Assembly (NCBI GenBank): GCA_048882505.1
Contig: JBHLRO010000060.1
Location: 1 to 5,767, forward strand
Direction of reading: 5' to 3'
Source of the DNA: Candidatus Thorarchaeota archaeon
GTDB lineage: Archaea > Asgardarchaeota > Heimdallarchaeia > Hodarchaeales > Hodarchaeaceae
Length of the DNA: 5,767 nucleotides
A program made the position numbers and the translations under genes. The notes beneath the pieces are model-generated. The model made no database searches. It was given only the letters and a program-made list of their open reading frames with translations, and had not been told where the DNA came from. Positions 1 through 5,767 of the stretch are shown one piece after another. Numbering within the stretch: the stretch's first letter is position 1; every line of letters starts with the position of its first letter.

Positions 1-777
1 GCCGAGCGTTAGTAAGACAGGTAAAAGCCGTGCATTCGGATCGGATGGGTTTAGGATTTTGAAACGACACCATCCAGTGAATCCTACGAATCTGAGAGCC
101 TTTCCCATAGCAACCTCCCGTGTCCTCAACTTGTAAGCGCGGGGATGGACATTATCGGTGACGAATTGGATGAACTGGCTTGGATCAACGATCACGGTGA
201 AGATTTCTAAGGCGGTAGCAATGCGGATCAAATTTCCGAATATCAATCGAGGTTCAGGGAACAAAGCAATCTGGGATGATGACATACGATTAAACTGAGT
301 CGGAGTGAGAAACTGAATAGAAAAATGAGGAGCTAATGGAGACGGAATTAAAGTTTGTTCGGTGTACTGGTGTCGTTCGAAGCCAACACGTTCTAAAAGA
401 AATGATTGGTTTGCAAGGGTGATGGTGGTGTCTGTAAGAGAAAGGATACCTTGGATAATCGCCTGATTGACTTGCGGATTTACAGTATTGAGCCGAAATA
501 CAACGGGACGGCCTGGATCGAGGATGACCATCCCTTGAGACGTACGTGAGAGTGGACCTGAAGGATTAAAGAGTGTAGTGACGCTATAAGGTCTCACATC
601 ATTTTTTCGATGAAGAAGTGCAGATATCTCGGGATTGGCACTTTGGATAAGGTGCAATGTGGCCCCGCGTACTTGATGCCCGGTAAATGGAGGGAGGATG
701 GTATTAGGATTTAGAGCCCGGAGATGAAACGCAAAAGTATAGGCATTAAAATTGATTTGAGTGGTTATTCCAGTCAT
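1..777 (-). CDS. cas6: CRISPR-associated endoribonuclease Cas6 (RAMP; resembles the Thermus Cas6A/COG5551-like group), 3'-truncated by the window edge
   Basis: Not in the ORF track. Hand translation from ATG (775-777) gives 259 stop-free codons to base 1: MTGITTQINFNAYTFAFHLRALNPNTILPPFTGHQVRGATLHLIQSANPEISALLHRKNDVRPYSVTTL...HFSIQFLTPTQFNRMSSSQIALFPEPRLIFGNL...KLRTREVAMGKALRFVGFTGWCRFKILNPSDPNARLLPVLLTLG. The Cas6 motifs are in the expected order: LP-x-x-x-G-x-x-x-RG, LH..RPYS, F-x-TPT-x-F, PEPRLI, GF-x-G-x-x-x-F and the L-x-x-LG helix that normally precedes the Gly-rich loop. That loop would lie just outside the window. GAGGAGG SD at 782-788. Confidence 0.92.
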   Translation of the reverse strand, partial: MTGITTQINFNAYTFAFHLRALNPNTILPPFTGHQVRGATLHLIQSANPEISALLHRKNDVRPYSVTTLFNPSGPLSRTSQGMVILDPGRPVVFRLNTVNPQVNQAIIQGILSLTDTTITLANQSFLLERVGFERHQYTEQTLIPSPLAPHFSIQFLTPTQFNRMSSSQIALFPEPRLIFGNLIRIATALEIFTVIVDPSQFIQFVTDNVHPRAYKLRTREVAMGKALRFVGFTGWCRFKILNPSDPNARLLPVLLTLG

Positions 778-781
778 GTTG

Positions 782-788
782 CCTCCTC
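782..788 (-). promoter_or_regulatory. Shine-Dalgarno motif of cas6
   Basis: Minus strand reads GAAGAGGAGGCAACATG, i.e. GAGGAGG 4 nt before the ATG at 777. Confidence 0.75.
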
Positions 789-821
789 TTCAGTTTTAGA
801 GCAGGATAGGAGTCACGAGAT

Positions 822-840
822 TGTTTAAAGGATTTTGTTG
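822..840 (-). promoter_or_regulatory. Candidate archaeal TATA box (with weak BRE) for cas6
   Basis: Minus strand CAACAAAATCC-TTTAAA-CA, with TTTAAA at 824-829, about 47 nt upstream of the ATG. This leaves room for a short leader containing the SD. Motif match only. Confidence 0.35.
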
Positions 841-1097
841 TTGAATCATTAAGAGACTACTCGAAATCATATTGATTGTAGGTAATAATAAACATTGCGA
901 ATGAATGGATTTTTAGGCTGGAAAACCTTACCCATTTTACTGACTATCGAATGTCCTTCTTCAAACAGCCAGGCATCGTTTAATATGGCTCTTCTATCTT
1001 ATATCTGCCTACAATGCTGATTACCGAACTGGTTACCTTGAAATAGATCAAAGATCCATCCTTAAGAAGTTCTGGGATTCAAAATTGACCTACTGGG

Positions 1098-1120
1098 AAA
1101 AAAAAGGAAATAATATTATT
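1098..1120 (-). terminator. Candidate oligo-T terminator downstream of the membrane-protein gene
   Basis: The minus strand has a 12-nt perfect palindrome AATAATATTATT (1109-1120) followed by TCC and a T8 run (1098-1105), about 110 nt after the stop at 1218. Oligo-T tracts are established archaeal terminators. Confidence 0.3.
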
Positions 1121-1217
1121 ATATTAAAGAGCATTTACAGGAAATATCGTCAAATGAAACAATTAACTCATTTCGTGTAATAGAAACCATAATTAGAACG
1201 TCATCACCCAAGATGGC

Positions 1218-2780
1218 TTATAAGGAATATATAATTAGATTTAACTGATAATCGAGATCGTAGGGGTTCCATACCTCAGTTGTTGTAGTGAAGAGTTGTG
1301 TGACAGTGGACCCGTTCGGGGCTGTAATCACGTCTTCGACAAAGGAAATTACAGGGGTAATACTTCCAGACAGATTGGCAAACTCCCAAGATTCGTAGTT
1401 AGGGAGTACAAAACTGCTTGGATCTTCCTTATCACTCCAAAGCGATCCCCAGTCAACCATTATTTCTTGATAGGGAAGATAATTGTCTTCTAAGGAGGGA
1501 AACACGTCCGATACACGTTTGAAAGAGAGAGGTGAACCGAAATATCCATCCGTGTTGGTCTCAATCCATTGCGAACCTGGAAACGACATTGTGTCCGCCC
1601 ACCTTATGGAACGAGTCTGGTTAGCAAGGATGGCATGTTCAAACTTCTCCATACTACTATTTTCCGTTAATAAAGAGTCGGAGTTAAGAATTGGAGTTAA
1701 TCCGAGTTCGGAGAAAGGGGAGTAAAGATTATACTCCGCAGCCTGAAGGATCCCCCAATATGTGTCCTCCCACTGTGCACTATCGACTTGCCAATTCAGT
1801 CCCGTACTCGCATAATGGTTGAAGACACGGTTTTTGACTGCAGTTACCAATTCTGGGGAAAGTCCATCGATCAAGTCCAACATGTGCAAGGCTTCGATAG
1901 ATTTACGAATTGTCCCCCACCAATCGATGGTTCGGGTATTCTCAACCATAACCTCCTCACTCTTCGTGATCTCCGTCCCATTGACCGTTTCAGTGGTGTT
2001 AACCACCTCGGTGGTATAATGGTACTCATCTACCCGTTGTCTCATAATGAAAGCGTTGATGTGTTGCTTTTCTAACGGTGAGAGGAGACTGGATGCGTTT
2101 AGACGTTGCTGTGTTTCCAATGCATAGAAAGTGTCCTGCCAGTTGGGATCATTCGTACCTCCAGCGGTGAACCCGCCCGCCCCAAGAGTCTCTCGATAAA
2201 GTTCCTTTACTCGGGAGGCAATCAAATCTTCTAGAACAGGTTCATTCTTCTCTTTTCCCGCCGCAATCGGGATGGCGGAATTAAAAAATAATAGGAATGC
2301 CAAACCACCTAGGATTATGAGTTTATTACGAGGACGGGCTCGTACGCCCTCCAAAGAACGTCCAAGTGCCTCTTGACGAGATCCCTTACTTAGAAAATAT
2401 AGGATCAGAAAGAGAACCACTGGAACAACCAAGATCACGCCCCCAAATGGGACAATTACCGCTCCAAGGGACTCTAGGGACCATATGAAAAGTCCGAAAC
2501 AGGTTAAGTATACCGCATAAAGAGGTAGCTTTCGATGGAGGAGTTCCTTCCACGGGTCTGGAGGCGACCTCATTATTAAGAACACCAAGACTGGTGGTCC
2601 TAAAAGCATTAGACCTAGGAGGGATATTGAAGGATTTAAGAAAAAAAAGAATAGGCCCAATGTGATTACCAAGAGGGGATATTTTGTTGAATAAGGGGTT
2701 TTTAGCTCTTTTAAAGGCGCCTTATGACCCCTATTGCGAACAGATAAATTTTCATATTCTAAGGTGTGATCTATTGGCAT
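1218..2780 (-). CDS. Multi-pass membrane protein with a large, probably extracellular, prenyltransferase/squalene-cyclase-like alpha-helical repeat domain (function unknown)
   Basis: The track ORF 1218..2852 starts at a TTG just past a terminator. ATG 2780 (MPIDH) has GGAG at 2787-2790 at good spacing and is the more likely start. About 5 hydrophobic segments lie in the N-terminal ~150 aa. Then come repeat-like motifs GGFTAGGTNDPNWQDTFYALETQQRL, DWWGTIRKSIEALHML and SAQWEDTYWGILQA, which resemble the GGF..DTY/FYAL pattern of the PF00432 family. There are 7 N-x-S/T sequons after the last TM segment. Confidence 0.8.
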   Translation of the reverse strand: MPIDHTLEYENLSVRNRGHKAPLKELKTPYSTKYPLLVITLGLFFFFLNPSISLLGLMLLGPPVLVFLIMRSPPDPWKELLHRKLPLYAVYLTCFGLFIWSLESLGAVIVPFGGVILVVPVVLFLILYFLSKGSRQEALGRSLEGVRARPRNKLIILGGLAFLLFFNSAIPIAAGKEKNEPVLEDLIASRVKELYRETLGAGGFTAGGTNDPNWQDTFYALETQQRLNASSLLSPLEKQHINAFIMRQRVDEYHYTTEVVNTTETVNGTEITKSEEVMVENTRTIDWWGTIRKSIEALHMLDLIDGLSPELVTAVKNRVFNHYASTGLNWQVDSAQWEDTYWGILQAAEYNLYSPFSELGLTPILNSDSLLTENSSMEKFEHAILANQTRSIRWADTMSFPGSQWIETNTDGYFGSPLSFKRVSDVFPSLEDNYLPYQEIMVDWGSLWSDKEDPSSFVLPNYESWEFANLSGSITPVISFVEDVITAPNGSTVTQLFTTTTEVWNPYDLDYQLNLIIYSL

Positions 2781-2866
2781 TTCAATCTCCATCTGAACTT
2801 TGCATGACTGTTCCACGCGATTTCGAACAAGTCCGTTACGAAAGACATCCAAACTGTCTGAAAGTT

Positions 2867-2914
2867 AAAAAAACAATGGGAACGAATTTGTCTCCTTCGA
2901 GACAAAATTGTTCC
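2867..2914 (-). terminator. Hairpin plus T-tract, likely terminator of the LRR gene
   Basis: Perfect 8-bp stem TTTGTCTC (2887-2894) / GAGACAAA (2899-2906) with a 4-nt loop. It extends through two bulges to GGAAC (2879-2883) / GTTCC (2910-2914). On the minus strand it starts 14 nt after the LRR stop and is followed by CATTG and T7 (A run 2867-2873). Confidence 0.7.
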
Positions 2915-2927
2915 TTATACCCAAAAA

Positions 2928-3683
2928 TCAATTCGTTGAGGAAAAGGTCACGACATCCCTATTATTGGTTATTACCCTATGATAATGGTCGGGATCTCCG
3001 GTGTATTCTGTCACAGAGGGAATTAGGATTCTTAAGAACCGATTGAGAGGATGAGGGGGCGGATTCGGGACAATCACCGTTTTTAAGGTTACTGGCACAT
3101 CGTACCCAATATGACTATGTAGGTAGATGCGGGTCAGGTTGGGACAGGTGAATAGGGGACTAATGTCTAACTCAGCAACCTGATTCGCAAAAAGCGAAAA
3201 GCTTTTGAGCAAAGGATGGTGAGCGAATGGGGTCAGGTCTACAGTCTGCACCCGATTATAGTTAAACTCGAACTCCTCCAGGGCAGGCCACGATTGAACG
3301 ATGGAAAAATCGAATGTATCGATTCTGCTATTAGATAGATTAAATCCCTTCATGTGTTTGCACTCCCGTAAGACCGTCACATCAAATTCAGTCAAGGGGT
3401 TGTCCCCCCATATCCCGAAATTCTCAAGGTTTCGACAACTGCTCAATGCCTCAAGTTCCGACAACTGGGTAACCCCTGAGTGCATGAGGGATATGTAACG
3501 CACCTTATTATAGGGAGGATGCTTGAGACCCTTGAGTGAAATCAGTGGATAGGGCGTGTCTCCCCACACGAACTCACTTTCATCGGAGGGATCATACTGG
3601 CCAACTTGTAGTTCCAACCATGACCCGTCATCCGACAAACGAGCAATTTTGGTTAAGTCCACAGGAGTCTGCATGAGATCCAA
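2928..3683 (-). CDS. Leucine-rich repeat protein (251 aa)
   Basis: Five full 24-25 aa LxxLxLxxNxLxxxDLxxLxxxxx units plus a partial sixth (aa 61-189), e.g. LEEFEFNYNRVQTVDLTPFAHHPL / LKSFSLFANQVAELDISPLFTCPN. TTG start with GGAGGG SD at 3690-3695. No signal peptide or TM segment is visible. Confidence 0.9.
   Translation of the reverse strand: MDLMQTPVDLTKIARLSDDGSWLELQVGQYDPSDESEFVWGDTPYPLISLKGLKHPPYNKVRYISLMHSGVTQLSELEALSSCRNLENFGIWGDNPLTEFDVTVLRECKHMKGFNLSNSRIDTFDFSIVQSWPALEEFEFNYNRVQTVDLTPFAHHPLLKSFSLFANQVAELDISPLFTCPNLTRIYLHSHIGYDVPVTLKTVIVPNPPPHPLNRFLRILIPSVTEYTGDPDHYHRVITNNRDVVTFSSTN
3117..3503 (-). repeat. LRR array at protein level (5 full units of 25, 25, 24, 24 and 24 aa, plus a partial unit)
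   Basis: Units begin at V61, L86, M111, L135, L159 and L183 of the 251-aa protein. The repeats are degenerate at DNA level. Confidence 0.85.
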
Positions 3684-3791
3684 CCTAATCCCTCCAACAT
3701 CCTTATTTAAATGTTCCTATAGGTCTCAACTGATCAGATCTATGGTTCTGTTTCTAGTTTTTACGCGGATCAAAATAACCACTTTGAATTT

Positions 3792-3808
3792 GGTTATAAA
3801 TTTCCTGT
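3792..3808 (-). promoter_or_regulatory. Candidate BRE-TATA promoter for the LRR gene
   Basis: Minus strand ACAGGAAA-TTTATAA-CC, with TTTATAA at 3794-3800 directly preceded by a purine-rich BRE-like run. A second candidate, TTTAAATA, lies near 3704-3711, closer to the start. Motif match only. Confidence 0.45.
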
Positions 3809-3982
3809 AATTTCGCTATCCCGACTCTCCTCGGATGTGTAGGTTCACATTAAACCGCGATGGCTAATGAAATGAAAGACCCAGACCGTTTGGGGCATTT
3901 TCCGAAAAGAGCACGAGTATTTTATTTTCGTTTATAATCTCCTAAGCCTCTTAATCGCGTGAGCTTCCACGTTTTACCCGAA

Positions 3983-5767
3983 TCAAACAACAGCTGTGGC
4001 TTGGTCTAACGCCGCCTTACCACCATTTTCTTGCGCAATCTTGGACATAGCCGTAACTACCTGGGCGAACTTTTTGCCTTCCGCCGCAGACATCCATTCG
4101 ATGATGAATCGATTATCATCAATATTCTGCTTTTTCATCCAACGGCGAATCTTTTTCTCCCGTTTCAATGCCCAATCGTTACCAGAAATGTAGTGGCAGT
4201 CTTGTGGATGACAACCAGTCAACATAACTGATCCTGCGCCTTTTTCAAAGGATCTCTTGATGTAATCAATATCGACACGACCGGAACACATGGTTCGGAT
4301 AATTCGGGTATTGGTGGGGTATTGAATTCGAGAAGTACCTGAGAGATCGGCGCCTGCGTAAGAACACCAGTTGCAGGCGAAAATCATGACTTTTTCTTCG
4401 GCATTGTCACGCATAGCGATGTCAATCTGTCGGAAGATCATTGCATCCGTGAAATTCATCATGGTGATACAGTTTTTAGGACAGTCTGCTGCACATGTGC
4501 CGCAACCCTTGCAGAGGACGGGATTGACGCTTGCTTTGATTTTTCGTTTTTTATCTACAGTAATAGCCAAGTAGGGACATCGTGTGGCACAAAGCTCGCA
4601 TGCGGTGCATTCATCGGTATCTACAAAGGCATAAAGGGGTTCAACATTGAATTTGCCTTTGGTAATAAGTCGCGTGACTCGACCAGCCGCGGCGCTTGCT
4701 TGAGTTACGGTTTCTCGGATGTCTTTAGGAGCTTCAGCACCGCCTGCGATGAAGATTCCATCGCTAGGAGTATCCACGGGCTTCAGTTTTGGATGTGCCT
4801 CGATGTAAAAACCATCAGGATCTCGTGAAACCGGAAACGGAATTTCTGTTTTGTTTCCTTCAGCACCGATTGACAGAACAACCAGATCAAAATCCTCTGA
4901 TACCAGCGAACCTTGCATCACTGCTTCCACGGTAATCTGCAGATTATGGGTTTCTGGATTTTCTTGTATCTGCGCGGGGCGTCCTCGAATATAACGCACT
5001 CCTTCTTCCCGAGACCGTGTATAGAGCGCTTCAAAGCCTTTTCCAAAGGCTCTGATATCCATATAAAAGATTGTAACCTCTACATCGGGCCAATGTTCCT
5101 TGATAAGCAAACTATCCTTGATGCTCTCCATACAGCAGAAATTGGAGCAATATGGGTTATGACGAACGTCTCTTGAGCCTGTACAATTGATAAAGGCTAT
5201 CTTCTTGGGACGTTTAAGATCAGAGGGACGAAGTAGGTCTCCTTCCGTAGGTCCCGCGGCATTAATCAATCTCTCAAATTCCAAAGTCGTTATTACGTTT
5301 GGATAGCGGCCCCACCCATATTCAGGAATCTTCGATGCGTCAAATACGTCAAAGCCAGTGCTAATTATGATAGATCCAACTTTGTATGTGTAGGTCTTTT
5401 CGCTATCTTCGTAAATGATCGCTTCTTTATCGCATTCCTTGATACACTTTCCACACGCCAATGGAGAAAGACCCAGACAGTTCTCTTCATCAATGATATA
5501 ACTGGCAGGGACAGCTTGAGGATATGGGATATAAATTGCTTTCCGCCATCCAAGATTTCCAGAATATTCATCTATAACATTCACCGGACAAATATCCACA
5601 CACTCATCGCAAGCCGTACAAAGGTCTTCGTCTACATATCGGGGCTTTTTGGTAATTGTGACCTCAAAATTTCCAACGTATCCATCGATTCGGGTTACTT
5701 CCGCATTAGAAATTAGATTGATATTCTTATGGTTACCCACGTCAGCCATTTTTGGGCCAAGAATGCA
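3983..5767 (-). CDS. hdrA: Heterodisulfide reductase subunit A-like FAD/Fe-S protein fused to a C-terminal MvhD (hydrogenase delta, [2Fe-2S]) domain; 5'-truncated
   Basis: The frame stays open to the edge (5767: CILGPK-MADVGNH, the HdrA C-I-L-x-P-K-M motif), so ATG 5749 is internal. It contains an inserted ferredoxin (CTACDECVDICP...CLGLSPLACGKCIKEC), TLEFERL, the cluster motif CTGSRD..YCSNFCCMESIK, FYMDIRAFGKGFE, AHPKLKPVDT..GIFIAG..PKDI and a C-terminal ferredoxin (CTACELCATRCP, CKGCGTCAADCP). The MvhD motifs FACNWCSYAGAD, RTMCSGRVD and GCHPQDCHY follow. Confidence 0.95.
   Translation of the reverse strand, partial: CILGPKMADVGNHKNINLISNAEVTRIDGYVGNFEVTITKKPRYVDEDLCTACDECVDICPVNVIDEYSGNLGWRKAIYIPYPQAVPASYIIDEENCLGLSPLACGKCIKECDKEAIIYEDSEKTYTYKVGSIIISTGFDVFDASKIPEYGWGRYPNVITTLEFERLINAAGPTEGDLLRPSDLKRPKKIAFINCTGSRDVRHNPYCSNFCCMESIKDSLLIKEHWPDVEVTIFYMDIRAFGKGFEALYTRSREEGVRYIRGRPAQIQENPETHNLQITVEAVMQGSLVSEDFDLVVLSIGAEGNKTEIPFPVSRDPDGFYIEAHPKLKPVDTPSDGIFIAGGAEAPKDIRETVTQASAAAGRVTRLITKGKFNVEPLYAFVDTDECTACELCATRCPYLAITVDKKRKIKASVNPVLCKGCGTCAADCPKNCITMMNFTDAMIFRQIDIAMRDNAEEKVMIFACNWCSYAGADLSGTSRIQYPTNTRIIRTMCSGRVDIDYIKRSFEKGAGSVMLTGCHPQDCHYISGNDWALKREKKIRRWMKKQNIDDNRFIIEWMSAAEGKKFAQVVTAMSKIAQENGGKAALDQATAVV

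Follow-up and report, generated by a model that had tools for sequence, protein, structure and literature searches.

The minus-strand open frame at the left end of the DNA analysed here (the window, 5,767 bp, which is the whole of contig JBHLRO010000060.1, hereafter C60) encodes a genuine Cas6 of an Asgard (Heimdall/Hod-type) archaeon, that is, an ordinary CRISPR RNA-processing enzyme. The explanation that best accounts for all our observations, and that we consider very likely, is that this Cas6 was truncated by the assembly, that it processes the CRISPR repeats of its own genome, and that it serves a type III-A effector whose genes were not assembled. The gene and its landmarks are as follows.

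1..777, minus strand: cas6, partial coding sequence (codons 1-259 of the ~282-285 expected), 3' end cut by the contig end.
782..788, minus strand: Shine-Dalgarno-like GAGGAGG, 4 nt upstream of the cas6 ATG, read directly.
667..669, minus strand: codon of R37, in the motif VRG; equivalent to TtCas6A Arg22 and TtCas6B His23 in the profile-to-PDB alignment.
610..612, minus strand: codon of H56, in the motif LLH; equivalent to TtCas6B His42 and TtCas6A His37, the proposed general acid.
298..306, minus strand: T-P-T motif, residues 158-160 (TPTQF), opening the second ferredoxin-like domain.
247..261, minus strand: F-P-E-P-R motif, residues 173-177 (FPEPRLIF), which aligns with PEPRLV of TtCas6A.
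73..84, minus strand: G-F-T-G motif, residues 232-235, in the beta-hairpin of the C-terminal domain.

The original prediction had described an open frame of 259 codons from 777 to 1, preceded by a strong Shine-Dalgarno sequence. The ORF listing and the translation confirmed that this frame is free of stops up to the contig end; the ATG at 777-775 is the earliest start downstream of the preceding in-frame stop, and GAGGAGG could be read at 788-782. For 259 open codons at 45% GC the chance expectation is roughly 0.95^259, which is far too small, and the coding status of the frame is also backed by 464 database homologues. The gene had further been called uncalled and hidden, and this part of the prediction turned out to be a display artefact. 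The ORF track is empty below position 1218 because the program that lists ORFs omits frames running off an end unless open-ended frames are requested, and the gene looks hidden because the assembly breaks ~25 codons short of its end. A public protein collection already contains the identical 259-aa partial product with precomputed Cas6 Pfam matches. Partial genes at window edges can therefore be mistaken for hidden genes, since the first-stage ORF track drops frames at contig ends.

Profile searches assigned the product to the Cas6 family. The Pfam model PF10040 (CRISPR_Cas6) matched with 29 bits (gathering cut-off 25), and PF21350 (Cas6 N-terminal) reached 26.5 bits, just under its cut-off of 27. 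Fourteen different Cas6 models of PADLOC matched the fragment (best E 1e-20), with a strong score for PDLC01466. In contrast, the NCBIfam model TIGR01877 gave an E value of 7.9e-10 but, at 39.5 bits, stayed under its equivalog cut-off (58.65 bits), and the clade is divergent. The best PADLOC match spans model positions 4-187 of 223 and leaves the C-terminal end of the profile unmatched, which fits a missing C-terminus. An exhaustive HMMER search returned 464 relatives at E<=1e-3 with a typical length of 260-290 aa, and only four of them reached E<=1e-30. The closest ones were P0002 (49% identical, 285 aa) and P0003 (48% identical, 282 aa). The clade to which this Cas6 belongs is thus divergent but ordinary.

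The predicted structure is that of a Cas6 protein. An AlphaFold2 model built on an alignment of 51 sequences had a mean pLDDT of 93.8 and a pTM of 0.87. Its N-terminal half folds as beta-alpha-beta-beta-alpha-beta and its C-terminal half as beta-alpha-beta-beta-alpha, ending in the helix 247-258; the last strand of the second ferredoxin-like half is absent because of the truncation. In a Foldseek search with this model, the best 40 PDB matches were all Cas6 endoribonucleases. The top match was Thermus thermophilus TtCas6B (4c9d, TM 0.71-0.73, E 4e-13), and the matches also included the Sulfolobus solfataricus Cas6 (4ill), the Streptococcus thermophilus Cas6 (6fjw), TtCas6A, the Pyrococcus furiosus Cas6 (PfCas6) and the Cas6 domain of Cas6-RT-Cas1. 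Profile searches and structure prediction had been proposed as checks in the original prediction, and both agreed with it: PF10040 scored over its cut-off together with 14 PADLOC models, and the modelled protein consists of two ferredoxin-like (RRM) halves that resemble Cas6 structures only among the best 40 matches.

We compared the protein with the solved Cas6 enzymes that it most resembles. TtCas6B (TTHB231; PDB 4C98, 4C9D) is the best structural match and has the tandem ferredoxin/RRM fold in common with it; the profile match (E 2e-29) covers nearly the whole length, but the sequence identity is only ~20%, and TtCas6B comes from a bacterium whereas the host of the window Cas6 is an Asgard archaeon. 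His23 in helix alpha1 of TtCas6B corresponds to R37, and His42 after alpha1 corresponds to H56. TtCas6A (TTHA0078; PDB 4C8Y, 4C8Z, 4C97) has the same order of motifs, and its Arg22/His37 correspond to the pair R37/H56, but its N-terminal domain aligns only weakly by sequence to our family (domain 1 not significant). Among solved structures, the type III-A Cas6 of S. thermophilus (PDB 6FJW) gave the best profile match by sequence (E 7.6e-31), and it was the sole phmmer match of the single window sequence, but the alignment falls mainly in the C-terminal two thirds, and this protein is also bacterial. The residue equivalences were taken from an alignment of the family profile to the PDB chains, which have an offset of four residues due to a tag.

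The active site of the Thermus enzymes has been studied by mutagenesis. In TtCas6A, Arg22 and His37 contact the scissile phosphate, and the exchange H37A caused a ~17,000-fold defect whereas R22A caused one of <7-fold (PMC3902920). The site of TtCas6B consists of His23, His42 and Tyr256, with a ~300-fold defect in H42A (PMC3902920). The original prediction had reported an ordered set of Cas6 motifs and had placed R37 and H56 at the catalytic Arg/His positions. Indeed, VRG, LLH, TPTQF, FPEPRLIF and GFTG all occur in this order, the Thermus Cas6A motifs that it named (LRG, EVH, SPTFFR, PEPRLV, GFVG) can each be read in the TtCas6A chain, and R37 aligned with TtCas6A Arg22 and H56 with TtCas6B His42. 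At least 90% of the 51 aligned family members share H56; R37 is the majority residue among these 51 relatives and is invariant in the eight closest. In the same alignment P159 (in the modelled strand 151-160), P174 of F-P-x-P and G235 are invariant, and T160 and G232 are at least 90% conserved. G33 is a further family signature present in the window Cas6. Judged from these conserved residues, the window Cas6 is probably an active nuclease.

The C-terminal end of the protein is missing. The source assembly is a draft of 83 contigs (4.3 Mb, 94.5% complete). Since the window is the entire contig and its left end joins nothing, the final ~23-26 residues of Cas6 remained unassembled: none of the other contigs of the genome overlapped with the first 300 nt of C60, and a tblastn search of the genome found no second Cas6 fragment. 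In all aligned full-length relatives, a short linker, a Gly-rich loop and the final strand come after the helix with which the window protein ends (LLTLG). The loop starts about six residues beyond the break and lies 6-16 residues past it in the aligned full-length homologues. It has the form N-V-G-x-x-R-T-x-G-x-G (or N-V-G-x-(K)-R-T-x-G-x-G), in which each of the residues G, R, G and G reaches at least 90% conservation among the aligned relatives, and it lines up with the corresponding loops of the two Thermus enzymes. The loop of TtCas6A, G-V-G-A-K-T-S-L-G-Y-G, is of the G-x-G-x-K-x-x-x-G-x-G form that the original prediction had expected within about 20 codons of base 1, whereas that of our family is the variant N-V-G-x-K-R-T-x-G-x-G. 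At the position of Tyr256, which TtCas6B uses in its loop, the homologues closest to the window protein have an Ala (KRTAGLG). We conclude that the ~23-26 C-terminal residues, comprising the Gly-rich loop and the final beta-strand, were lost to the assembly break, and we assume that the full-length cas6 gene is intact and functional.

A likely substrate for this enzyme is encoded in the same genome. Contig C61 begins inside a CRISPR array with 37-nt repeats (L005:1-37) at positions 1, 77 and 151, the third of which is degenerate, separated by spacers of 39 and 37 nt. A second array on C61 (1064-1251) has three repeats at 1064, 1138 and 1215 and is degenerate. Further copies of this repeat were not found elsewhere in the genome, and neither C61 nor the window matched any Rfam family. 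When folded, the repeat RNA forms a short hairpin with a 5-bp stem (U15-C19 / G26-A30) and UUGAAAU behind it; the repeat carries the tail AUUGAAAU after the hairpin, and the stem is conserved, without compensatory base changes. A toxin-antitoxin pair, made up of a gene for a VapB-like RHH protein (348-569) and a PIN toxin gene (556-963), lies between the two arrays of C61.

Related loci connect the Cas6 clade with this type of repeat. The locus of the closest Cas6 homologue (L015) contains cas6, a beta-helix protein, a DUF2797 gene, cas1, cas2, cas4 and an array of ~50 units; the repeat of this array, also 37 nt long, matches that of C61 in its flanks and stem and differs in the loop. A search of metagenome contigs with the exact pattern of the full repeat gave no match, whereas a looser pattern of the repeat core identified 46 stretches. 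On two metagenome contigs (L125 and L129), Cas6 relatives with 33-34% identity are encoded beside arrays whose repeats have the same GTTCCTC-N6-GAGGATTGAAA core as the C61 repeat. Direct linkage of cas6 to an array and/or other cas genes was found in the four related loci L015, L027, L125 and L129. These locus contexts give good support to the view that this Cas6 clade and this repeat family belong together. In L129, which is part of the 156-kb contig Ga0315314_1000059, a stand-alone cas6 is surrounded by single or paired repeats (at 2213, 5642 and 8402/8477) in alternation with small genes (~140-170 aa) that come in pairs, an odd layout of scattered mini-arrays; large effector genes were not found near this cas6.

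TtCas6B cuts a hairpin repeat and leaves an 8-nt handle (PMC3902920). By analogy, the intact Cas6 would most likely bind the small hairpin of the 37-nt repeat of its genome (L005:1-37) and would cleave the pre-crRNA at one site in each repeat, 8 nt away from its 3' end. H56 would serve as general acid and also stabilise the phosphate, and R37 would hold the scissile phosphate. Cleavage at this position would leave crRNAs with a AUUGAAAU 5' handle, which is typical of Cas6 products according to established Cas6 biology and PMC3902920. The crRNAs would then be passed to an effector complex that is absent from the assembly, most probably of type III-A (Csm). Both the catalytic activity and the cleavage site on the 37-nt repeat are predictions from alignment and repeat folding.

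The adaptation genes of this genome are on a third contig, C55, whose broken end carries a 312-aa DUF2797-like gene followed by cas1 and a partial cas2; the Cas1 proteins of C55 and of the L015 locus share 67% identity. Thus, cas6, cas1-cas2 and the arrays belong to the same genome but are distributed over three separate short contigs (C60, C55 and C61), which we infer to be physically linked.

A DUF2797-like gene of ~311 aa lies directly upstream of cas1 in three loci: on C55, in L015 of the closest metagenomic relative, and in the complete type III-A locus of G038, a complete genome of the same class.

L004:1232-2170, minus strand: DUF2797-like gene of C55, which overlaps cas1.
L015:6528-7463: DUF2797-like gene of the L015 locus.
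L027:12423-13358: DUF2797-like gene of G038.

The two latter proteins are 37% (L015) and 24% (G038) identical to that of C55. No PADLOC model matched the DUF2797-like protein, and no literature link between DUF2797 and Cas1 was found in searchable papers. An ordinary cas4 is also present in L015 and G038, which argues against the DUF2797-like protein being a mere substitute for Cas4.

A different reading of the truncated gene is that this Cas6 is catalytically dead or decaying, being either an RNA-binding remnant or a gene truncated in the genome itself. The left end of C60 is a dead end without overlap, the degenerate second array of C61 could mean a decaying system, no effector genes were found in the assembly, and cas6 lies in a variable region that is missing from the nearest relative. 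Moreover, non-catalytic Cas6 homologues are known, and PDB 3ufc, which we take to be one of them, was among the Foldseek matches. However, all 259 codons are open, all family-invariant or near-invariant residues that fall within the fragment are kept, H56 included, and the structure model is very confident. C55 and C61 are likewise broken at cas or array ends, as expected of an assembler failing on a CRISPR region. We therefore regard decay as improbable and retain the reading of a Cas6 that was truncated by the assembly.

The remaining part of C60 has the following features.

778..1217: AT-rich spacer (~33% GC, 440 bp) between the membrane-protein gene and cas6.
1218-2852, minus strand: predicted membrane protein of 544 aa, directly upstream of cas6.
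2928-3683, minus strand: leucine-rich-repeat (LRR) protein of 251 aa (LRR_4, LRR_8).
3983-5767, minus strand: HdrA2-like heterodisulfide reductase with a fused MvhD/FlpD domain, cut at the right end and continuing on contig C7.

The spacer contained no Rfam family and no CRISPR repeat; the presence of such a spacer suggests that cas6 has its own promoter. The 544-aa membrane protein matched no Pfam, NCBIfam or PADLOC family and has neither a paralogue in the genome nor a counterpart in the nearest relative. The LRR protein has paralogues on C21 (83% identical) and C46 (63%). At its right end, C60 finishes with 77 nt that recur exactly at the end of C7, so that the two contigs join there. The HdrA2-like protein is 75-80% identical to those of many Hod-, Heimdall- and "Promethearchaeota" MAGs. 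In the nearest relative as judged by HdrA (G061, 96%), the nucleotide similarity to the window ends exactly at the hdrA stop codon, and no match to the window Cas6 was found in this genome. Two co-directional genes directly follow hdrA in the nearest relative, and both are absent from the window.

The distribution of the gene could also be taken to mean that C60, or its cas6 end, is foreign, as mis-binned DNA or as the passenger of a mobile element. The GC content of cas6 is 45% compared to ~41% for the genome, a homologue is present in only one of 21 other genomes of the same genus and is just 36% identical, and the nearest relative lacks window bases 1-3984. Nevertheless, the protein of the hdrA2-like gene on C60 has a 96% identical counterpart in a Heimdallarchaeota MAG, the right end of C60 overlaps C7 by an exact 77-mer, paralogues of the LRR gene occur on C21 and C46 of this genome, and a patchy distribution is normal for cas genes. 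A foreign origin is thus highly unlikely, and we assign cas6 to this archaeon. A Cas6 homologue was detected in 11 of the 60 relatives searched, and we conclude that cas6 is located in a variable region with the patchy distribution that is usual for defence genes. CRISPR-Cas systems are known in Asgard archaea and have been used there for virus-host matching (bioRxiv 10.1101/2021.07.29.453957; PMC8730458). Our analysis adds one divergent Asgard Cas6 (at most 49% identical to any protein within the searched collections) together with its likely substrate repeat and documents a fragmented CRISPR locus whose effector is unassembled; it leaves the current understanding unchanged.

Which effector uses the crRNAs was addressed in the genome itself and in its relatives. 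In the 94.5%-complete assembly, profile searches for RAMP (PF03787), Cas7/DevR, the Cas3 core and Cas4 produced no match that passed the cut-off, but these negatives are weak, as the same search with TIGR01877 missed the cas6 of the window; its only match in the genome was C13:42206-42532 (E 0.077, inside a 344-aa open frame). For this reason the question was repeated by tblastn with Cas10 and Csm2-5 of G038 and with Cas4 and other proteins of the relatives, and only cas6, the 312-aa gene, cas1 and cas2 were matched. A related-locus search with P0003 in a collection of genome contigs found no relative. The simplest reason for the missing effector is a gap in the assembly, since the three CRISPR-related contigs are short and broken at cas or array ends.

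In the complete genome G038, the gene order around the Cas6 homologue is cas10-csm2-csm3-csm4-csm5-cas6-CARF-311aa-cas1-cas2-cas4, and in the locus L157 two Csx1 CARF-HEPN genes flank arrays of this repeat family. Together with the best profile match to 6FJW, these relatives make type III-A (Csm) our best guess for the effector. Because cas10 and csm2-csm5 were not found in the assembly itself, this assignment is derived from the relatives.

The Cas6 could instead serve a type I effector (I-B, I-D or I-A). The PADLOC model of Cas6d (I-D) was the third-best match (E 1.5e-12), and models of Cas6a and Cas6b matched as well; the adaptation module of the relatives includes cas4, which is commoner with type I; and repeats ending in ATTGAAA(N) occur in both type I and type III arrays of archaea. 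However, neither Cas7/DevR nor the Cas3 core nor Cas4 was found in the genome, the sole related locus with an effector beside the Cas6 homologue is of type III-A (G038), and Csx1 genes flank arrays of the repeat family. We consider a type I effector rather unlikely and continue to favour type III-A.

It is also conceivable, with a very low probability in our view, that the genome truly lacks a canonical crRNA effector, and that Cas6, the C61 arrays and the DUF2797-cas1-cas2 module supply guide RNAs in trans to a non-canonical partner, for example an unrecognised effector. In the L015 locus, no effector was found in the 3.6 kb upstream of cas6, and its array is long and uniform. An assembly gap that removed a type III-A effector is the explanation we prefer.

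Finally, at L005:1265-4221 (C61) and L126:674-3653, a HerA-type ATPase of 486 aa and 518 aa, respectively, is paired with a protein of no recognized family (498 aa on C61, 486 aa in L126). This pair adjoins arrays of the repeat family both in the genome studied here and on an unrelated metagenome contig, and the ATPase and the ~490-500-aa protein are possibly a CRISPR-linked defence pair.
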